IMG/VR virus record: IMGVR_UViG_2718218398_000003
Direction: 5' to 3' (one strand)
Source of the DNA: a virus
Lineage: Duplodnaviria > Heunggongvirae > Uroviricota > Caudoviricetes
Length of the DNA: 45,775 nt
Part shown: one piece after another, positions 2,401 to 19,636 of the stretch
Numbering within the stretch: the stretch's first letter is position 1
Layout: every line of letters begins with the position of its first letter
Program-made: the position numbers and the translations under genes
The notes under the pieces: model-generated
The model's database searches: none
What the model was told of the DNA's origin: nothing
What the model saw: only the letters and a program-made list of their open reading frames with translations

Positions 2401-2458
2401 TTTTGTGCCTCCATAATCATATGATTTAAAATGTTATTTTATAAAAAAGGAGTTGTAT

Positions 2459-3415
2459 ATGACCAATTTGTATAAGTTTATGGGAGCGGATATAATTGAT
2501 AAATTGATGATGGATGAAACACATATAGGAATAAAATTCTCTCATTTACATGAATATAATGATCCCTATGAGTTTTTCCTTACTATTGATTTTAATCGCG
2601 GTTCTGATGAGTTAGCATTTTACAATGAAATGATTGGCATGGTTACAAAACAACCAGCAACTTGTTTTACGAAAAGCCCTGTGATACCACCTATGTGGGC
2701 ACATTATGCAGGTAATTCTTCTGGTTTTGTAATAGAGATTAATGAGGAGAAGTTTAAAAAGTATTTGGATGAAATCGGCTTCCAGGATCATAGTTCAATA
2801 GCAGATGTTGAATATAAAGATTCTCCAGATACAGGTATTGAAGACATTCTGGCGAGAGCATTTCATATCTGTAAACCTCGTTATATCTACTGGCTACAAT
2901 CCTGTATAATGACAGCCGCATATTTGACAAAACAAACTTGCTGGAGTTATGAGCAGGAACGTCGCGTAATAATTAATGAGAAAGCACTTACTAAACTGAA
3001 TGACAATCTTATGCTCCTTCCGGTACCGATTAATTGTATAACTGGAGTTATAGTTGGGCACAAATCAAATGATTTATTAAAGCAGAAAATTCAATCTTTA
3101 GCTAAAAAGGCTAAATGTAGATATTTCGAAATGGTAATAGGAAAAACAACAACTACACCATTTCTTTTATCTCAAAATCTCAAATCACACCAATTTATTA
3201 ATGGCAATATAATACCTGCATCAAGGCAATGTAAAAAATGTTATGAGCCTTTAAACATGGAAAATAAAGTTTGTGGCTGGTGTGGAATTACTAATCATGA
3301 TGTGAAAATGGCAGAGTACCGTAATTCATTTCGAATGATAGCCAACTATGGTGGGCTGGATAAATATATATCATCCATGAATAAGATTACTGAAGAGTAT
3401 AATAAGGGTAAATAA
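2459..3415 (+). CDS. DUF2971-like protein with C-terminal CxxC...CxxC zinc ribbon (318 aa)
   Basis: ATG at 2459 with AAGGAG 6 nt upstream (track start 2453 is a TTG). N-terminal ...LYKFMGADIIDKLMMDETHIGIKFSHLHEYNDPYEFF... and later ...PMWAHYAGNSSGFVIEI... and ...CWSYEQERRVI... fit my recollection of the DUF2971 family; C-terminus has CKKCYEPLNMENKVCGWCG. Very AT-rich. Confidence 0.6.
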   Translation: MTNLYKFMGADIIDKLMMDETHIGIKFSHLHEYNDPYEFFLTIDFNRGSDELAFYNEMIGMVTKQPATCFTKSPVIPPMWAHYAGNSSGFVIEINEEKFKKYLDEIGFQDHSSIADVEYKDSPDTGIEDILARAFHICKPRYIYWLQSCIMTAAYLTKQTCWSYEQERRVIINEKALTKLNDNLMLLPVPINCITGVIVGHKSNDLLKQKIQSLAKKAKCRYFEMVIGKTTTTPFLLSQNLKSHQFINGNIIPASRQCKKCYEPLNMENKVCGWCGITNHDVKMAEYRNSFRMIANYGGLDKYISSMNKITEEYNKGK

Positions 3416-3552: not shown

Positions 3553-4737
3553 CTAACCGGTTTTAATTTCTCCATGAGGGACAACAATCCAATCTATATG
3601 ATTTTTAGTATAAATTTTAGTAGATTTCGCATCGCTATGTGCCATTCGTCCCTGCGGATCAATCCCTTGTTTATCAAATAGGTGAGCTGCCAAAGCTCTT
3701 ATTTCATGGAATGTAGGTCTTTGTTCCATTGCTAGATGATTGCATAGTCCGAGTTTGTCTCGCACGGAAGAGAATGACCGACTCAAATAATCTGGTGCAA
3801 CTTGAGTTGGGTGCGAAACCTCTTTACTGCGTTTAACATGCCGTTCTGGGATTCTATGAACGACAAAGGGACTGGCCACATTGTCACGGCTATTGTCAAT
3901 TATCCGTTTCAATTCTTCACCAATTGGTATTGCAACATGTGATGCCTCCTTTTTTTGTACTTTTTGCCTATGGATGTATAGTGTACCATATATGCCATTT
4001 TGTGGTTGTTCGAACCAAACACATCCACATAAACCGTCTTTAGGTTCGCGAATTGAGTAACGGATTCGCGATACTTCGAGTCGTGCATGTGTAGTCTGCA
4101 ATGCTAGGTCCATTGCTGTTCTTAACCATGGTGCAGCGGCCTGCCTGATAGCTATAAAATGCTCGAGTGACAGGCGCCGTCTTTTCTTCTCATCAGTCCT
4201 ACGCATTTTTTTTCTGATGGCCGGGTTATCCTGCATTAGTGATTCATCGACCGCATAAGAGAACAACTTTTTAAGAAAGCTGACCTTTCTGTTCTGCACA
4301 TTTGCGGATGCGCTGGCATGATATTTGTTGATGTAGGCATTAACGTGTTCAAGTTCGATATCGCATGCCGGAACATTTACGAAAAACGCTTTTACGCGTA
4401 GAGCGTCATTTTTCCAGTCATCTAAGGTACTCTGGGAAGGTCGTTCGTCTTCGATAATTCTGGCCATTATGTGATCGACATGTTCAGCAAATGGTTTTGC
4501 TTCTCCGGTGACCCCGCCAGATTCTCTAATAAGATTATCCACTGATGGGTATAATTCTGATCGCATCCTCAGGTTGTACTCTCTGGCGATTGCAACGGCT
4601 ATTGCCCGATCCTTACCTATATTTTTCTTTTTTCCGGTAATAAGTGTGAATTTATAAACACCTCGATCTTTATCAAAAACCAGATAATCAGGAAGATGTC
4701 TGTATTCTTTTTTACGTGGCCTTGCCGCCATGGTCAT
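3553..4737 (-). CDS. int: tyrosine site-specific integrase
   Basis: 394 aa; C-terminal catalytic region with ...HEIRALAAHLF...RMAHSDAKSTKIY... (conserved H, R and Tyr nucleophile of lambda-family integrases); adjacent to excisionase. Confidence 0.93.
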   Translation of the reverse strand: MTMAARPRKKEYRHLPDYLVFDKDRGVYKFTLITGKKKNIGKDRAIAVAIAREYNLRMRSELYPSVDNLIRESGGVTGEAKPFAEHVDHIMARIIEDERPSQSTLDDWKNDALRVKAFFVNVPACDIELEHVNAYINKYHASASANVQNRKVSFLKKLFSYAVDESLMQDNPAIRKKMRRTDEKKRRRLSLEHFIAIRQAAAPWLRTAMDLALQTTHARLEVSRIRYSIREPKDGLCGCVWFEQPQNGIYGTLYIHRQKVQKKEASHVAIPIGEELKRIIDNSRDNVASPFVVHRIPERHVKRSKEVSHPTQVAPDYLSRSFSSVRDKLGLCNHLAMEQRPTFHEIRALAAHLFDKQGIDPQGRMAHSDAKSTKIYTKNHIDWIVVPHGEIKTG

Positions 4738-10127: not shown

Positions 10128-11099
10128 ATGAGCACTAAATTAACCGGCTATGTATGGGATGGTTGCGCTGCATCAGGCATGAAATTATCCAGCGTGGCAA
10201 TTATGGCCCGCCTGGCTGATTTCAGTAATGACGAAGGTGTGTGCTGGCCATCAATTGAAACCATTGCCCGTCAGATTGGCGCGGGGATGAGTACCGTCAG
10301 AACGGCTATCGCACGGCTGGAAGCAGAAGGCTGGTTAACGCGTAAGGCGCGTCGCCAGGGTAACCGCAATGCGTCGAATGTTTATCAGCTTAACGTTGCG
10401 AAGCTTCAGGCAGCGGCATTTTCTCAACTGTCAGATTCTGACCCGTCAAAATCTGACGCATCAAAATCTGACGCATCAAAATCTGACGCATCAAAATCTG
10501 ACCCGTCAAAATTTGATGCGTCGAAATCTGGCAAAAAAGCGGGTTTTCACCCGTCAGAATCTGGCGGGGATCCGTCAGTAAAATCAAAACATGATCCGTC
10601 AGATAAAAAACCTTCTCGTCCGGACGCTTCGCAACCGGACACGCAGACGGCTGAACAGGATTTTTTAACTCGCCATCCTGATGCGGTTGTATTCAGCCCT
10701 AAAAAGCGCCAGTGGGGGACGCAGGATGATTTGACCTGCGCACAGTGGCTCTGGAAAAAAATCATCGCCCTGTACGAGCAGGCTGCCGAATGTGACGGCG
10801 AGGTGGTTCGTCCCAAAGAACCGAACTGGACAGCCTGGGCAAACGAAATTCGCCTGATGTGTGTGCAGGATGGTCGTACTCACAAACAAATCTGCGAGAT
10901 GTACAGCCGCGTCAGCCGCGATCCGTTCTGGTGCCGTAACGTGCTCAGCCCGTCGAAGCTGCGGGAAAAATGGGATGAGCTTTCTCTGCGCTTATCGCCG
11001 TCCGTCAGCACGTACACAGAAAAACGCGAAGACCCGTACTTCAAAGCCAGTTACGACAATGTGGACTACAGCCAGATCCCGGCAGGATTCAGGGGGTGA
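10128..11099 (+). CDS. replication initiator (lambda O-like; N-terminal HTH, iteron-containing)
   Basis: 323 aa; N-terminal winged-HTH-like region; internal SKSDASKSDASKSDASKSD repeat encoded by 15-bp DNA iterons, as in lambda O / ori. Confidence 0.85.
   Translation: MSTKLTGYVWDGCAASGMKLSSVAIMARLADFSNDEGVCWPSIETIARQIGAGMSTVRTAIARLEAEGWLTRKARRQGNRNASNVYQLNVAKLQAAAFSQLSDSDPSKSDASKSDASKSDASKSDPSKFDASKSGKKAGFHPSESGGDPSVKSKHDPSDKKPSRPDASQPDTQTAEQDFLTRHPDAVVFSPKKRQWGTQDDLTCAQWLWKKIIALYEQAAECDGEVVRPKEPNWTAWANEIRLMCVQDGRTHKQICEMYSRVSRDPFWCRNVLSPSKLREKWDELSLRLSPSVSTYTEKREDPYFKASYDNVDYSQIPAGFRG
10431..10535. repeat. replication origin iterons: 7 tandem 15-bp repeats (consensus TCAAAATCTGACGCA)
   Basis: Three perfect copies at 10446-10490 flanked by four degenerate copies; further CCGTCAG-containing degenerate repeats to about 10610; all inside the initiator gene. 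Confidence 0.85.
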
Positions 11100-11101
11100 T
11101 C

Positions 11102-11590
11102 ATGAGTCTTTTGAATGAAGTTCAGAAATTCATTGAAGCCCATCCGGGGTGTACTTCCGGAGACATTGCGGATGCTTTTGCAGGTTACTCACGGCAGCGC
11201 GTTCTGCAGTCAGCAAGCAAGTTACGTCAGAGTGGGCGTGTGGCTCACCGTTGTGAAGGGGATACACGCAGACATTTCCCGCGCCAGACAAAGATATCGC
11301 CGGAGGCGGAACGGCAACCAGTTCGTGAAACCAGACCTGTGCGCAATTTCTATGTCGGCACTAACGACCCGCGGGAGATTTTATGCCTGACCCGCCAGGC
11401 TGAAGAACTGGAGTCCAGGGGCTTATACCGTCGTGCTGCAACGGTGTGGATGGCGGCATTCCGTGAAAGCCACTCCCAGCCAGAACGAAACAATTTTCTG
11501 GCGCGTCGTGAGCAGTGTTTACGGAAAAGCAGCAAGCGCGCTGTATCGGGTGATGAGTGGTATCTGTCAGGGAATTACGTGGGGGCTTAA
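11102..11590 (+). CDS. PerC/ANR-family-like transcriptional regulator
   Basis: C-terminal ...LTRQAEELESRGLYRRAATVWMAAF... resembles the PerC-family signature (recalled). Start at ATG 11102; track start 11096 is GTG overlapping the O stop. Confidence 0.5.
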   Translation: MSLLNEVQKFIEAHPGCTSGDIADAFAGYSRQRVLQSASKLRQSGRVAHRCEGDTRRHFPRQTKISPEAERQPVRETRPVRNFYVGTNDPREILCLTRQAEELESRGLYRRAATVWMAAFRESHSQPERNNFLARREQCLRKSSKRAVSGDEWYLSGNYVGA

Positions 11591-12243
11591 TGAGTAATAA
11601 ATATTGCCAGGAGCTGGTGGAACTGCGGAACAAACCAGCCCATGAACTGAAGGAAGTGGGCGATCAGTGGCGCACGCCGGACAACATTTTCTGGGGAATT
11701 AACACCCTGTTTGGTCCGTTTGTTCTGGATCTGTTCACTGACGGTGATAACGCCAAATGTGCTGCGTATTACACGGCGGAAGACAACGCGCTGGCGCATG
11801 ACTGGTCAGAACGCCTTGCGGAGCTTAAAGGTGCTGCCTTTGGAAATCCCCCATACAGCCGCGCCAGTCAGCATGAGGGGCAATACATCACCGGCATGCG
11901 TTACATCATGAAGCATGCCAGTGCCATGCGTGATAAGGGCGGGCGCTATGTTTTCCTGATCAAAGCTGCCACCAGCGAAGTGTGGTGGCCGGAAGATGCA
12001 GATCATATTGCTTTTATTCGCGGGCGTATTGGTTTTGAACTGCCTGCCTGGTTTATCCCGAAGGATGAGAAGCAGGTGCCGACAGGCGCTTTCTTCGCTG
12101 GTGCTATTGCTGTTTTCGACAAGACCTGGAAGGGACCGGCAATCAGCTACATCGGGCGCGATGAACTTGAGGCATGTGGTGAGGCGTTTCTGGCGCAGGT
12201 TCGCCTGCAGGCGGAAAAGCTGGTCAGGGAGATGGCGGCATGA
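11590..12243 (+). CDS. phage Dam-type DNA N6-adenine methyltransferase
   Basis: Catalytic motif IV NPPY (...AAFGNPPYSRA...); ATG overlaps the upstream stop (TAATG); 217 aa. Confidence 0.8.
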   Translation: MSNKYCQELVELRNKPAHELKEVGDQWRTPDNIFWGINTLFGPFVLDLFTDGDNAKCAAYYTAEDNALAHDWSERLAELKGAAFGNPPYSRASQHEGQYITGMRYIMKHASAMRDKGGRYVFLIKAATSEVWWPEDADHIAFIRGRIGFELPAWFIPKDEKQVPTGAFFAGAIAVFDKTWKGPAISYIGRDELEACGEAFLAQVRLQAEKLVREMAA

Positions 12244-14778: not shown

Positions 14779-14795
14779 TTTTGTGGAGAAAGTTG

Positions 14796-15158
14796 ATGCG
14801 TGATATTCAGATGGTTCTGGAGCGTTGGGGAGCATGGGCGGCGAGTGATAGTTCTGGAGTAGATTATTCGCCTATAGCTGCTGGGTTTAAAGGGCTTCTT
14901 CCCTATACAAGTAAAACACGTCAGGCTTGTTCAGATAGTGATGCATTAATTATTGAAGGTTGTCTTGCTCGTCTAAAGCAAAAAAGGCCGGACGAACATT
15001 CGCTTCTTGTTGCCCATTACCTATTCGGTATCTCTAAAAGAAAGCTCGCCAAGGCTCGTAAAAAGGATGAGAAATTAATACGCATTGAGATACAGATGGC
15101 TGAGGGGTTTATTGATGGCTGCCTTTCAATGCTAGATCTAACATTAGATATGGATTAA
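14796..15158 (+). CDS. Q: late-gene antiterminator Q (phage 82/QuuD type)
   Basis: N-terminal MRDIQMVLERWGAWAA... matches the Q82-family signature; ATG with GGAG 7 nt upstream (track start is a TTG 15 nt earlier). Confidence 0.8.
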   Translation: MRDIQMVLERWGAWAASDSSGVDYSPIAAGFKGLLPYTSKTRQACSDSDALIIEGCLARLKQKRPDEHSLLVAHYLFGISKRKLAKARKKDEKLIRIEIQMAEGFIDGCLSMLDLTLDMD

Positions 15159-15165
15159 TTAAGAT

Positions 15166-15194
15166 GAGAAAGATACCTACACAGTATCTTTCTC
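15166..15194. terminator. strong hairpin (11-bp perfect stem) between convergent Q and the accessory cassette
   Basis: GAGAAAGATAC-ctacaca-GTATCTTTCTC, overlapping the stop of the 143-aa minus-strand gene and 8 nt after the Q stop; flanked by A/T-rich sequence. Confidence 0.6.
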
Positions 15195-15608
15195 AATTTG
15201 TTCAAATTTTGGTAATGGATTTGCTGTACTATTTTTTCCTATATTGATCATTATTTCCACAGTTGCTTCTCGAGAGCGTAGCAGCTTTTGCCTAAACTCA
15301 TCAGTGGTATATTTCGATGCTAATTGCTTATCAATGGTCTCGAGATCTCGGAGGCATTGCTTTCTTTTTGCTGCATCTTCTGGTGATTCAAGTCCATGAC
15401 GTGCAATTACCCAGCAAAGTATATATGTCAGGATTGCCGAAATAAGAGGTATTATTAAATATAGTAATTTCGCAAGGTTTGAATTGGCATCAGGTACGCA
15501 AAATGTTACCAGACCTGACAAAATGATCCCAAAACCGCCAGTAGAGAGGGTTGAAGTGACTGGGCTAGTTGGTTTTTTTTCATCAGACATTTGAACTGGT
15601 GCCGTCAT
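15177..15608 (-). CDS. small membrane protein (143 aa, two predicted TM helices), third gene of accessory cassette
   Basis: Hydrophobic segments GGFGIILSGLVTFCV and LLYLIIPLISAILTYILCWVI; overlaps the upstream gene by 26 nt; AT-rich; no recognised motif. Confidence 0.6.
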   Translation of the reverse strand: MTAPVQMSDEKKPTSPVTSTLSTGGFGIILSGLVTFCVPDANSNLAKLLYLIIPLISAILTYILCWVIARHGLESPEDAAKRKQCLRDLETIDKQLASKYTTDEFRQKLLRSREATVEIMINIGKNSTANPLPKFEQIEKDTV

Positions 15609-15846
15609 TCGTTGCTTCTTCTATCAGTTGAACGATAGTTTTGCTTTTGTCTTTAGGCATGACAATAGTGATTGACCGCTTATCGTTGGTGACTTCATCG
15701 ACAAAAACAAACTCAAACTTACGAACAGGGAATAACCTCCGCCATAGTAAAGCGGATGCAGCGTATGAGAAGCGAAACAGGAGAGGTGATATCATGATCA
15801 CCCCTATCCACATCGCGAGTTCTATGATCTGCTGGGTTAACATCAT
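15583..15846 (-). CDS. small membrane protein (87 aa, N-terminal TM helix), second gene of accessory cassette
   Basis: ATG 7 nt after the stop of the upstream gene; hydrophobic N-terminus IIELAMWIGVIMISPLLF; translationally coupled layout. Confidence 0.5.
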   Translation of the reverse strand: MMLTQQIIELAMWIGVIMISPLLFRFSYAASALLWRRLFPVRKFEFVFVDEVTNDKRSITIVMPKDKSKTIVQLIEEATNDGTSSNV

Positions 15847-15852
15847 TCCTGT

Positions 15853-16716
15853 TTAAGCTGGTCGTCTACGTTTAACTTTTTTGATAGCATAACGGTTTGT
15901 TACGCCACGCGCAGTAAATGTTTTTGTTGTTTCTAAATCAACAACATAAAGGTCCTCTTTTGAAAATTGTACTGTTGCAGCCTGAACCTGCGAAAGGAAA
16001 ACATTGTCATCTAGGCTTACTGAATGTTCTTCACCAAGATAATCAATTCGCCATCCCTTATTCCCTTCAAAGTTTACTTGAATGAATCTGACGTTAACCT
16101 CATCAATAGAAACTTCTTTTTCTAGTAAAGTACCACGTGGTAGTGGTTTGATTTCTTCAGTTTCTTCTCCTTCAAGCTTGAGAATCTCTTCTCCATTATC
16201 ATCAGTAATTTTGAAGATCGGGCGCTCTTTACCATCTAGTGGTGCTCTAACTACGTTAACTAAGGCTTGTCGTATTTCGGGATCAGTCACTAACTTTGCA
16301 ACAGCCTCATGACAAATAATTTCTTCTCCATCAAGTTCTAATACTGCTTCTTGTGTGTCGACCTTTCGAGTAACAGAAATAACCTTTCTACTCCCCAATT
16401 GTCGAATCAATGCAAGAGCTGAGCCACCAGCTAATGCACCACCAGCAACAGTGAGTCCAATTGCTTTGGCGACATCGACAGCATGAGGAACTAACTCTTG
16501 CATTGAATAAATAACACCGATTGATCCAGGTGCAGCAGGAGCGGTAACCATCAATTTGACTGTTTCCTGCCCATCATTAAGATTTCGATCCGCCTTTGCA
16601 ATAAGGTCAGCCATAGACCCTATTGATAAACTTAGTGTTTTTGCATCAATCTTATGCTGTGCTAATTCTTCATCTTCGGCATCATAGAAGACTTTGAAAG
16701 TGGTAGAACTATCCAA
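15853..16716 (-). CDS. hypothetical protein (287 aa), first gene of accessory cassette
   Basis: TTG start with GAGG 5 nt upstream; internal Gly/Ala-rich hydrophobic stretch AIGLTVAGGALAGGSALALI; acidic repeats; no recognised catalytic motif. Confidence 0.6.
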   Translation of the reverse strand: MDSSTTFKVFYDAEDEELAQHKIDAKTLSLSIGSMADLIAKADRNLNDGQETVKLMVTAPAAPGSIGVIYSMQELVPHAVDVAKAIGLTVAGGALAGGSALALIRQLGSRKVISVTRKVDTQEAVLELDGEEIICHEAVAKLVTDPEIRQALVNVVRAPLDGKERPIFKITDDNGEEILKLEGEETEEIKPLPRGTLLEKEVSIDEVNVRFIQVNFEGNKGWRIDYLGEEHSVSLDDNVFLSQVQAATVQFSKEDLYVVDLETTKTFTARGVTNRYAIKKVKRRRPA

Positions 16717-16844
16717 TTTTGCCTCAGTTTATTTTTAATTCTATCCTGTAGACTTAAATTAACGTGAAAGAGATGAAAAATCACTAACGCGGTCCGCATT
16801 TTTTCATTTAGCATGTTAAGAGTGGTTACTTCGCCACACAACTT

Positions 16845-16869
16845 AAACCCGCCGCTGAGCGGTTTTTTT
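16845..16869 (+). terminator. short hairpin plus T7 run (possible tR'-like terminator of the late leader)
   Basis: AAACCCGCCGC-tga-GCGG followed by TTTTTTT; located in the intergenic region upstream of the late/lysis genes. Confidence 0.45.
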
Positions 16870-16967
16870 GTACCTGTAAACCTGGTGCAGTACAGTAAAC
16901 ACGCTGGTTGTCGTGAATACTGACTTTTTATCTTGCTGGCATTTTAGACAAGAGTTATTGGTATGTC

Positions 16968-17195
16968 ATGTTAACCAGAAGGGAAAAAGACATGCTAAAA
17001 CAGCAAGATATGACAGAAACCGCCGCCGCAGTCCTTCATTTCTTACCTGCTGACAAGTGGGTAACGCCACGCATGATGACGAGAACTACCGGAGTAAGCG
17101 AAGCCCGGTGCCAGTTAATACTGACTCAGTTAGTTCTGGCGGGTCTGGCGAAGGATAACGGCGGGTACGGGAATAAATTCAGACGCTGCCAGTAA
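16968..17195 (+). CDS. small hypothetical protein (75 aa)
   Basis: ORF upstream of the methyltransferase, same strand; no recognised motif. Confidence 0.35.
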   Translation: MLTRREKDMLKQQDMTETAAAVLHFLPADKWVTPRMMTRTTGVSEARCQLILTQLVLAGLAKDNGGYGNKFRRCQ

Positions 17196-17345
17196 TGGCG
17201 GTTTCCTGCTGTGAAAATGGGCGGCTGGTGGGTGTTGGTAGCACCTGCCAGCCATTCGCTCATGCCTACTGGTCACAAGCGAACCACGGCCCACTGCTTT
17301 AGCGCAAAAGCAGAGTGAGCCTACCAGAGTTACGCTTACTGATCC

Positions 17346-18398
17346 ATGAAAAATACTGTAAAAATAAACAGTGTTGATTTAATCAACGCTGATTGCCTGC
17401 ATTTTATTCAGTCCCTGCCTGATGATTCCATTGACCTGATTGTTACCGATCCGCCTTACTTCAAGGTGAAACCCAACGGCTGGGACAATCAGTGGAAAGG
17501 GGACGAAGATTACCTTAAGTGGCTGGACCACTGTCTGGCCCAGTTCTGGCGGGTGTTGAAACCTGCCGGAAGCCTTTACCTGTTCTGTGGGCATCGCCTG
17601 GCATCTGATATTGAGATCATGATGCGTGAACGTTTCAACGTGCTTAACCATATCATCTGGGCGAAGCCGTCCGGACGTTGGAATGGGTGTAATAAAGAAA
17701 GTCTGCGCGCATATTTTCCTGCCACAGAGCGCGTTCTGTTTGCTGAACATTACCAGGGGCCATATCGCGGCAAAAGTGACGGCTATGCGGCAAAAGAAAG
17801 GGAACTCAAACAGCACATAATGGCACCGCTGATATCGTATTTCAGGGATGCTCGTGCCGAACTGGGTATAACGGCAAAACAAATTGCCGAAGCCACAGGT
17901 AAGAAAAATATGGTTTCCCACTGGTTTGGTGCCAGTCAGTGGCAGTTGCCGAATGAGGCTGACTATCGGAAGTTACAGGCACTGTTTTCCCGTATAGCGG
18001 CAGAGAAGTTTCAGGAACAACAACTGGAACAACCACACCACCAACTGGTGGCATCTTATGATTCACTGAATCGTAAATATTCTGAATTGCTGGATGAGTT
18101 TAAATCTCTCCGGCGCTATTTCTCCGTATCAGTCTCCGTGCCTTATACCGATGTCTGGATGCATAAACCCGTTCAGTTCTACCCGGGTAAACATCCGTGT
18201 GAGAAACCGGCGGATATGCTCAGGCAAATAATCAATGCCAGTAGTCGACCTGGTGATCTGGTTGCTGATTTTTTTATGGGATCCGGTTCCACAATAAAAG
18301 CAGCAATGGCGTTGGGGCGTCGGGCCTTAGGTGTTGAGCTTGAGTCAGAGCGGTTTAACCAGACAGTGAAAGAGATAAACGAGCTGGTGGGGAAATAA
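17346..18398 (+). CDS. DNA methyltransferase (amino-methyltransferase, DPPY motif)
   Basis: 350 aa; motif IV ...LIVTDPPYF... near the N-terminus and AdoMet-binding motif I ...[11 protein letters not shown]... near the C-terminus (beta-class order); no cognate endonuclease nearby. Confidence 0.88.
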
Positions 18399-18404
18399 TC
18401 TGGT

Positions 18405-18430
18405 GGCCACGTCAGGTGGCCTTTTTATTT
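18405..18430 (+). terminator. intrinsic terminator after the methyltransferase
   Basis: GGCCAC-gtcag-GTGGCC followed by TTTTTATTT, 7 nt past the methyltransferase stop. Confidence 0.75.
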
Positions 18431-18465
18431 CCATTACACAGCACCCGCATCTGCGAGGTGGGGTT

Positions 18466-18681
18466 ATGAAATCCATGGATAAGTTAACAACGGGTGTCGC
18501 CTATGGCACCTCAGCAGGTAGTGCCGGGTACTGGTTTTTACAGTTGCTCGATAAAGTCACGCCCTCACAGTGGGCGGCAATTGGAGTGCTGGGTAGTCTG
18601 GTATTTGGCTTGCTGACGTATCTGACAAACCTTTATTTCAAGATTAAAGAAGATAAGCGTAAGGCTGCGAGAGGTGAATAA
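18466..18681 (+). CDS. pinholin (phage 21 S21 type)
   Basis: [26 protein letters not shown]...[22 protein letters not shown] is near-identical to my recollection of S21. Track ORF starts earlier (18403) inside the upstream terminator, so the internal ATG is used. Confidence 0.8.
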
Positions 18682-19178
18682 TGTCGCCATCATTACGCAA
18701 GGCTGTTGCTGCTGCTATTGGTGGTGGGGCAATTGCTATAGCATCTGTGTTAATCACTGGCCCAAGTGGTGACGATGGTCTGGAAGGTGTTAGCCACATA
18801 CCATACAAAGATATTGTTGGTGTATGGACTGTATGTTACGGACACACCGGAAAAGACATCATGCTAGGTAAAACGTATACCGAAGCAGAATGCAAAGCCC
18901 TCCTGAATAAAGACCTTGCCACGGTCGCCAGACAAATTAACCCGTACATCAAAGTCGATATACCGGAAACAACGCGCGGCGCTCTTTACTCGTTCGTTTA
19001 CAACGTGGGTGCTGGCAATTTCAGAACATCGACGCTTCTTCGCAAAATAAACCAGGGCGATATCAAAGGCGCATGTGATCAGCTACGTCGCTGGACATAT
19101 GCTGGCGGTAAGCAATGGAAAGGACTGATGACTCGTCGGGAGATTGAGCGTGAAGTCTGTTTGTGGGGGCAGAAATGA
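18681..19178 (+). CDS. SAR endolysin (lysozyme, phage 21 R type)
   Basis: N-terminal signal-anchor-release segment ...[20 protein letters not shown]... followed by a T4-lysozyme-like catalytic domain; start overlaps the holin stop. Confidence 0.9.
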
Positions 19179-19636
19179 GCAGATTAACCGCGATTATCTC
19201 CGCTCTGGTTATCTGCATCATCGTCTGCCTGTCATGGGCTGCTAATCATTACCGTGATAACGCCATGACTTACAAAGAGCAGCGCGACAAAAACACCAGA
19301 GAACTGAAACTGGCGAACGCCACCATCAAAGACATGCAGATCCGCCAGCGTGATGTAGCGGCTCTGGATGCCAAATACACGAAGGACTTAGCTGATGCTA
19401 AAAAGCAGCTTGATGATTTGCAGCGTTGTGTTCGCACTGGCAAGTGTGGGCTGCACTTCAACGCCAGATGTCCCGCGAATGGAGCGACCAGCACCGGCAG
19501 CTTGGGCGATGTTACCAGCCCCCGACTTAATGACTCCGCTGAACGGGATTATTTCACCCTTAGAGAGCGAATCGTCACAGTGACTAAACAGATTAGTTAT
19601 CTGCAGAACTATATCGTCACCCAGTGCATTATGTAG
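19175..19636 (+). CDS. Rz: i-spanin Rz
   Basis: [30 protein letters not shown]... is close to lambda Rz as recalled; ATGA overlap with the endolysin stop. Confidence 0.85.
19395..19583 (+). CDS. Rz1: o-spanin Rz1 (embedded in Rz in the +1 frame)
   Basis: Lipoprotein signal with lipobox ...ALASVGC followed by Pro-rich segment ...[24 protein letters not shown], as in lambda Rz1; entirely within the Rz gene. Confidence 0.8.

Follow-up and report, generated by a model that had tools for sequence, protein, structure and literature searches.

We analyzed a 45,775-nucleotide (nt) stretch of viral DNA (IMG/VR record IMGVR_UViG_2718218398_000003), here called the window, with a focus on the DNA methyltransferase gene at positions 17346 to 18398. 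The window is, with good confidence, best explained as a lambdoid prophage of Escherichia coli that carries two independent orphan N6-adenine methyltransferase modules, one just ahead of the lysis genes (17346-18398) and the other in the nin region (11590-12243). The late enzyme is a predicted non-specific methyltransferase of the M.EcoGII family, and its gene is preceded by a conserved RNA element. We tentatively propose that this element is an undescribed, widely conserved cis-antisense small RNA (sRNA) of approximately 100 nt that, with its own extended -10 promoter, would guard M.EcoGII-type genes in temperate phages as part of a multi-layer safety catch. We hold this proposal as plausible, short of probable.

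Two orphan methyltransferases of different families

An earlier note on this DNA, made from the letters alone, had described both genes as amino-methyltransferases of different families, and both indeed proved to be intact. The late gene (plus strand, ATG start) encodes a beta-class protein of 350 amino acids (aa) with a match to PF01555 (N6_N4_Mtase; E = 2.2e-42) covering residues 29 to 341. [quoted passage not shown] The nearest solved relatives are the beta-class PDB entries 8urk and 9c3u (deposited only as "Methyltransferase") and M.RsrI.

The late methylase shares 81% identity with M.EcoGII over its full length with no large gaps (77% in the TRD), 89.6% with Anc291, a reconstructed ancestor, and 70.6% with SUPREM. 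As M.EcoGII and SUPREM share 70.3%, the window enzyme is, by pairwise identity, no further from these three proteins than they are from one another. For M.EcoGII, we used the sequence in the machine-read Supplementary Table S1 of PMC11551740, which has a few reading errors, and the identities are good to about 1%. All three enzymes have been reported to lack site specificity (PMC5778455, PMC11551740). M.EcoGII methylates adenine non-specifically, is silent in the lysogen, and is deleterious on expression (PMC5778455), and homologs of its family were inactive by reverse transcription-PCR or methylome analysis in ST131 and O111 strains (PMC4659465, PMC6602927). A 2025 review places M.EcoGII beside Mom of phage Mu, as an enzyme produced only when leaving the cell (PMC12707154). 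Judged by these relatives, the late enzyme most likely methylates adenine in any context, so that target-motif determination would probably find no motif. The gene is a known gene of a known kind and is ordinary for lambda-like E. coli prophages. Its product matches that of orf56 in phage cdtI, an inducible phage, with 100% identity, and the corresponding late enzyme of the Stx2a phage Stx2_EH2246 is 94% identical to M.EcoGII.

The nin-region gene (11590-12243, plus strand) encodes an orphan N6-adenine methyltransferase of 217 aa from the phage "Dam" family (PF05869, E = 1.2e-45; TIGR01712). It scored 155.7 bits for PF05869 and 255.3 bits for TIGR01712, against cut-offs of 28.1 and 97.05, and the (N/D)PPY motif of the family is present as NPPY at residues 86 to 89. 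The gene overlaps both of its neighbors, through TAATG at the start (11588-11592) and ATGA at the stop (12240-12243), and is therefore probably translated within the nin-region operon by translational coupling; the enzyme is probably made together with the delayed-early genes. It shares 98.6% identity with the "dam" genes of phage cdtI and of Stx2c phages. The earlier note had called the enzyme Dam-type, which holds as the Pfam family name and does not extend to specificity: the enzyme shares no more than 31% identity (over 144 residues) with the GATC-specific M.EcoVT2Dam, its own specificity for GATC is therefore not established, and the attempt to link the enzyme to a characterized relative failed at this level. 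The target is probably GATC or another short site, with GATC the best guess from the family. GATC is mildly depleted in the window (153 observed versus 209 expected), which is uninformative on specificity. In E. coli FORC_042, an IS3-family element is inserted just upstream of the Dam-like gene (L001, 13576-14789).

Neither gene has a restriction-endonuclease-like neighbor according to scans of the flanking open reading frames (ORFs) against Pfam, NCBIfam, PHROGs, and PADLOC. With no cognate restriction endonuclease gene adjacent, both methyltransferases are orphans, as the earlier note had stated. RusA and a DUF968/HNH protein are the sole nucleases in the vicinity; both belong to the standard gene set of the nin region and occur independently of the methylases. 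DUF968 is also found in Stx2_EH2246, where no Dam is annotated in the approximately 5 kb upstream of the methylase (replication genes through Q). The two modules look independent of each other. That two methyltransferases share one prophage, as pointed out in the earlier note, is not unusual. Both genes occur together in cdtI (100% and 98.6% identity) and in Stx2c phages, and Yersinia phage P840 carries an analogous pair.

The late cassette and its conserved RNA element

The late methyltransferase gene belongs to a moron-like cassette, delimited by two terminators, that is inserted after the region of the Q-dependent late promoter and ahead of the lysis genes. The order in the window is terminator, small ORF, structured RNA region, methylase, and terminator. 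The left boundary is a tR'-like intrinsic terminator at 16849-16870 on the plus strand (GCCGCTGAGCGGT plus TTTTTTT), which is annotated as a terminator in phage Ayreon. The right boundary, found in a terminator scan, is an intrinsic terminator at 18405-18430 on the plus strand, with the hairpin GGCCACGTCAGGTGGCC at 18405-18421 followed by TTTTTATTT; the same site is again an annotated terminator in Ayreon. It lies in the 67 nt that separate the methylase stop (18398) from the ATG of the S21-type holin (18466). In line with the earlier note, the gene is part of the late transcription unit and directly precedes the lysis cassette. The note had also described the gene as terminated separately. 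The terminator is real enough, but it does not uncouple the methylase from the lysis genes once Q has acted.

The first gene of the cassette is a small conserved ORF of 67 aa (16992-17195, plus strand) that matches phrog_331 (E = 4.6e-26) and, weakly, MarR_2/TrmB (E = 0.045 to 0.12). Its ortholog is named "TrmB family regulator" in the RefSeq record of phiP27, and ORFs of 65 to 83 aa occupy the same position in phiP27, Stx2_EH2246, P840, PhiR46_1, and the Vibrio locus L032. ORFs of this type always lie 5' of the RNA element and the methylase. The product is possibly a winged-helix protein; that it regulates the cassette would be a guess. The noncoding segment between the tR'-like terminator and the small ORF (16837-16990) is highly conserved among phages; on its minus strand lies the region's best promoter-like match (16969 to 16941, 10/12). 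A match to the Rfam family STnc130 in the same place (16837-16972, minus strand) scored 21.6 bits against a gathering score of 55, was mostly terminator-driven, and was not accepted.

The late position of the cassette is conserved. Ayreon and cdtI have the order terminator, small ORF, methylase, terminator, and holin, and mEp460 and SfV share the cassette DNA stretch at the sequence level. In phiP27 and in Stx2_EH2246, the order is Q, small ORF, methylase, tRNAs, and stx2AB. Since transcription of the stx genes starts at pR', the late promoter that depends on Q (PMC7547250), a methylase cassette situated between Q and stx2AB lies inside the late transcript. More distant methylases (48 to 61% identity) in Yersinia phage P840, in PhiR46_1, and in a prophage of Vibrio zhanjiangensis (L032) are located just 5' of holin and lysozyme genes, and in Vibrio phage VHML the methylase follows the same RNA element and precedes the terminase genes. 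In the window, we place a putative pR' promoter with a short leader at 16776-16848 (plus strand), which is homologous to the segment directly after the Q stop in Stx2_EH2246 and is also common to cdtI and phiP27, whose Q is annotated as the same type. The alignment with Stx2_EH2246 covers 16776-16870, including the GC hairpin and T run, whereas homology with phages of other Q types (mEp460, SfV, and Ayreon) begins only at approximately 16846 and extends rightwards. Many Stx2a phages (LC727850, NC_019442, KY914478, and others) have kept only a remnant that matches late-methylase residues 316 to 350, which suggests repeated loss of the cassette. In strain GZ04-0086, IS2 interrupts the methylase region.

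The 150 nt from the small ORF to the methylase ATG fold with unusual stability (plus-strand z = -3.97). In 20 loci from 16 genera, the span from "TGTGAAATGGGCG" to the ATG measures 134 to 141 nt, and 18 of the 20 end at an ATG. The arms of the long hairpin vary in sequence between loci while their complementarity is kept. A covariance model made from 12 seed sequences found 26 copies in 586 kb, all on the methylase strand, and all except the VHML copy (25/26) end at the first ATG of the cassette. In the plus-strand alignment, 86.4% of the cells were paired compared to 70.8% in shuffles, and 24 of the 30 pairs had changed on both sides; this alignment and the minus-strand alignment described below were fitted to covariance models, and the sequences are phylogenetically related. 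RNAalifold run on a plain MAFFT alignment recovered only helix P1. A coding explanation of the spacer was rejected, as no frame was open in more than 7 of the 26 sequences.

Loci with the element come from Enterobacterales, Gilliamella, Vibrio, and Cellvibrionaceae. All 50 close E. coli-type loci searched, namely 49 further IMG/VR loci and FORC_042, have exactly one copy, always at the same offset, and Stx2_EH2246 has the same cassette with the same RNA element. A search of the early-to-lysis region of VT2-Sakai (22 kb), where a full-length methylase is missing, did not find the element, and several methylase relatives are without it (L030, L036, L038-L041, L043, and L049). The loci with a copy include L005-L016, L022, L027, L028, L031-L035, L037, L044, L051, and L089-L168. 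In Xenorhabdus and Photorhabdus (L017-L026, L042, and L050), whose methylases have approximately 65% identity, the upstream element is shortened and divergent, and covariance models barely detect it (16.3 bits in L042). Rfam 15 gave no match to the element on either strand, and a literature text search with the sRNA sequence retrieved no publication. Tree et al. (2014) described prophage anti-sRNAs of 51 to 60 nt, located 3' of moron genes, which are not obviously the same RNA.

Three lines of evidence together favor the minus strand as the one that is transcribed into the structured RNA: the asymmetry of the mismatches, a conserved -10 box, and the minus-strand model itself. Read on the plus strand, A.C cells outnumber G.U cells by 76 to 26. 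Helix P3 can be extended by two further pairs, which are canonical in 25/25 and 26/26 scorable sequences on the minus strand compared to 10/25 and 13/26 on the plus strand (CA 15, TA 4, and CG 6 for one; AC 13, GC 4, and AT 9 for the other). The minus-strand model, with 34 pairs, had 88.8% of its cells paired, against 74.9% in shuffles (0/500). Both sides had changed in 27 of these pairs, and the covariation score was 0.457 compared to 0.115 at most in slid controls. Helix P3' was 94.8% paired and rich in G.U. The letters of the 3' "tail" are conserved without covariation and form no supported helix. An extended -10 box on the minus strand (TGGTAGGCT, of the form TGnTAnnnT) lies at 17318-17326, with a predicted start near 17311, and the same motif occurs in fixed register in 22 of 26 diverse loci. 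The candidate sRNA itself (17210-17317, minus strand; model R2, 107.6 bits, E = 5e-23) has the predicted helices P4' (17313-17294), P1' (17293-17289 with 17222-17218), P3' (17283-17255), and P2' (17253-17223). The most likely product, as far as the alignments tell, is thus an antisense RNA of approximately 100 nt that would start near 17311 and end near the U run at 17217-17214, from a promoter overlapping the methylase start codon; the -35 region of this promoter is poor. A GATC at 17341-17344, in the -35-like region, is present in most but not all aligned sequences and was given no weight.

The element might instead be a sense-strand structure, a cis-acting leader within the methylase mRNA (a translational operator, a riboswitch, or an autoregulatory site), with no antisense sRNA involved. 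Such a leader would fit with the nearly constant distance (135 to 141 nt) over which the element runs up to the first ATG of the cassette, where it always ends, with the absence of a Shine-Dalgarno sequence before the methylase ATG, and with the stability of the plus-strand fold; the plus-strand model also covaries strongly, and P2 in the E. coli group contains plus-strand G.U pairs. The excess of A.C over G.U, however, speaks against a sense-strand structure, as do the two P3 pairs that are always canonical only on the minus strand and the well-paired, G.U-rich P3' of the minus-strand model. The 3' "tail" has no supported helix but does match the minus-strand -10 box, and the helices P5 and P6 proposed for the 3' part of a sense leader were rejected for lack of convincing covariation. 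We regard a sense-strand leader as possible, though less likely than not, and favor the antisense sRNA.

Proposed role and alternative readings

In the proposed role, the late methylase would be transcribed only once RNA polymerase, under the action of Q, reads past the upstream terminator. The enzyme would then methylate most adenines of the replicating phage DNA shortly before packaging, and the progeny DNA would thereby be protected in new hosts from many adenine-methylation-sensitive Type I, II, and III restriction systems. Broad anti-restriction of this kind is the role that Mom plays in phage Mu, and a toxic enzyme would have to stay off in the lysogen. There, the antisense sRNA could pair with the leader of a leaky methylase transcript and be overwhelmed by late transcription. 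The layers of the safety catch would comprise the late terminator, the small and possibly winged-helix ORF, the sRNA, and in Vibrio a Com-like zinc-ribbon protein, resembling Type I toxin-antitoxin logic embedded in a phage late operon. This proposal builds on direct observations of homology, motifs, cassette anatomy, and a conserved late position, with the cassette found between Q and stx2AB in Stx phages. Anti-restriction, one of two purposes suggested in the earlier note, is the likeliest one.

The other suggested purpose was epigenetic regulation, with the late methyltransferase as a sequence-specific orphan enzyme that is expressed in the lysogen and regulates host or prophage genes. Gene regulation is known from orphan methyltransferases such as Dam and CcrM, the cassette is flanked by terminators of its own, and the small ORF contains a weak promoter-like match (17050-17077, 9/12). 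Yet the late enzyme shares 81 to 90% identity with enzymes of demonstrated non-specificity, the region has no more promoter-like matches than shuffles do (7 versus 10.8), and the gene sits downstream of the tR'-like terminator, facing the putative antisense promoter. An epigenetic role in the lysogen is very improbable because the homologs are silent there and toxic when expressed; the late-operon context was seen in the prophage itself, and silence and toxicity are reported for the homologs only. We likewise give little credence to RNA, rather than DNA, being the main substrate, with late methylation of host or phage RNAs serving as a takeover function. M.EcoGII does methylate RNA and DNA:RNA hybrids in vitro (PMC5778455), and engineered relatives are efficient RNA methylases (PMC11551740), but the initial rate of M.EcoGII is approximately 90-fold higher on DNA than on RNA (PMC11551740, Supplementary Table S3), and both the late position, before packaging, and the Com/Mom-like context agree with a role in protecting DNA. 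Lastly, the methyltransferase could be the modification half of a cryptic restriction or defense system together with two minus-strand cargo genes, an ORF of 143 aa at 15177-15608 with no family match in the library scans and a gene for a LAPAL-motif protein at 15853-16716. The two genes sit between Q and the putative late promoter, where cdtI has a different gene pair. The LAPAL protein matches PADLOC PDC-S42 (E = 1e-32), and its gene is 630 bp upstream of the methylase. However, the cassette is present without the minus-strand genes in Ayreon, phiP27, and Stx2_EH2246, the DNA shared with mEp460 and SfV likewise starts only at the cassette (approximately 16846), and scans against Pfam, NCBIfam, and PHROGs detected no nuclease domain in the neighbors. 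Both genes are also on the opposite strand and outside the terminator-bounded cassette, and we find such a system scarcely credible.

Several points weigh against the proposed reading of the window. We found no paper showing hypermethylated virion DNA for any phage with the late methylase gene. Heavily m6A-modified DNA is a target of methylation-dependent nucleases (PMC11037411), and protection by hypermethylation therefore has a cost. The non-specificity of the late enzyme is predicted from 81 to 90% identity, and in other methyltransferases a single TRD change can shift specificity. The nin-region enzyme has no close characterized relative, and a structure search returned no related solved structure. 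The pR' hexamers were not confidently identified, as a consensus scan for plus-strand promoters across 16700-16990 found none and manual candidates were weak; the promoter is thus placed by homology, not demonstrated. Furthermore, the two minus-strand genes (15177-16716) separate Q from this putative promoter in the window, a position that is also occupied in cdtI. The 3' end of the candidate antisense sRNA, with only a run of 3 to 4 U after a branched structure, is not a textbook terminator, and where the E. coli-group P2 has tandem G.U on the plus strand, the minus strand would have A.C mismatches.

Lambdoid prophages with orphan methylases of the M.EcoGII and phage Dam types are well documented, and the sequenced phage cdtI already has the exact pair. 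The comparison adds a fixed place for M.EcoGII-type genes, as the first cargo of the Q-dependent late operon and, in some Shiga-toxin phages, upstream of stx2. This position explains their silence in lysogens and predicts hypermethylated virion DNA, which would matter for the host range of phages and for how stx and cdt genes spread across restriction barriers. The conserved RNA, if real, would be a new regulatory RNA family and is the only element here that is possibly new. It would answer how a lysogen tolerates a gene for an enzyme that methylates every adenine, and it might help control the expression of M.EcoGII, a widely used reagent for chromatin footprinting.

Prophage setting and comparison with known systems

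The window is a complete-looking lambdoid E. coli prophage with integrase, repressor, Q, S/R/Rz, terminase, and tail genes. The 2-kb stretch at 16700-18700 is 100% identical to part of E. coli FORC_042, and at least 80% of it is present in 844 of 5,426 complete E. coli genomes. The RefSeq annotation of FORC_042 lists, on the early side, integrase, repressor-like regulators, a phage N6-adenine methyltransferase, RusA, KilA-N, DUF968, and Q; after Q follow two minus-strand hypotheticals, a small hypothetical, a "DNA-methyltransferase," essD/rrrD/Rz, terminase, and tail genes. The Q antiterminator of the window (14781-15158, plus strand; RefSeq start 14793; PF06530, E = 4.3e-53; phrog_79) is alignable over its full length with that of Stx2_EH2246, and the compared translations are clear homologs. 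The phage-21-type lysis cassette (18466-19636, plus strand) consists of an S21-like holin (PF04971, E = 3.6e-35), a lysozyme (PF00959, E = 7.2e-47), and Rz (PF03245, E = 1.4e-39), with essD/rrrD in RefSeq. The holin begins with MKSMDK, which provides two close start codons, and the lysozyme has a hydrophobic N terminus; these features (18466-19178) fit a pinholin paired with a signal-anchor-release (SAR) endolysin. Between the left end of the window and the integrase (3553-4737, minus strand), a DUF2971 protein (2453-3415, plus strand) matches the PADLOC candidate defense family PDC-S31 (E = 4e-22). A 15-bp tandem repeat (10437-10530; 6.3 copies, 88% matches) encodes SDASK/SDPSK peptides inside ORF 10128-11099 (PF13730), annotated as a "helix-turn-helix domain-containing protein."

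Among known systems, cis-antisense RNAs that restrain harmful or late genes include sar against ant in P22, OOP against cII in lambda, and the antisense RNAs of Type I toxin-antitoxin systems. The candidate sRNA resembles them in being short, structured, and convergent over the 5' region of a gene that is kept silent; it differs in having no sequence relationship to them and in covering the leader from approximately -135 to -35, not the start codon. For the nin-region enzyme, the comparison is with M.EcoVT2Dam (orf32 of VT2-Sakai), which is likewise a nin-region orphan of PF05869/TIGR01712 but has 175 aa instead of 217 and only the 31% identity given above; GATC specificity has been reported for VT2 Dam (PMC6602927). 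The late enzyme finds its closest described parallels in M.EcoGII and M.EcoGI from prophages of E. coli O104:H4 C227-11 (Murray et al. 2018, PMC5778455), with which it shares the beta class, the motif order, and the lambdoid prophage setting. M.EcoGII has 349 aa compared to 350 in the window enzyme, approximately 19% of the residues differ, and the window enzyme is closer to Anc291 (89.6%).

Com together with non-specific adenine methylases in the position of mom is known from Mu-like prophages (PMC3299994). The promiscuous adenine methylases Hia5, Hin1523, and Nma1821 are encoded downstream of com and are presumed to have an anti-restriction role (PMC3299994), as proposed here, but they are alpha-class enzymes with reversed motif order (PMC5778455) and no detectable relationship to the window protein. 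Mom of Mu is itself toxic and expressed late, modifies phage DNA broadly for anti-restriction, and is silenced in the lysogen by several layers of control. It differs from the late enzyme in adding acetamido-adenine instead of a methyl group, and the proteins are unrelated. The window has no com gene, and the control proposed here is Q antitermination plus antisense RNA. In Vibrio and Cellvibrionaceae loci, however, a 38-aa Com-like zinc-ribbon ORF is located between the RNA element and the methylase. The one in L032 (2852-2968) matches PF10122 with E = 1.6e-4 and 21.5 bits, just under the gathering score of 22.9; similar Com-like ORFs were read by eye in the upstream sequence of L035 and L044. 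Where this ORF is present, the RNA element ends at the Com ATG and not at the methylase ATG, which parallels com-mom of Mu. The presence of a Com-like ORF 5' of the methylase thus reinforces the parallel with Mom.

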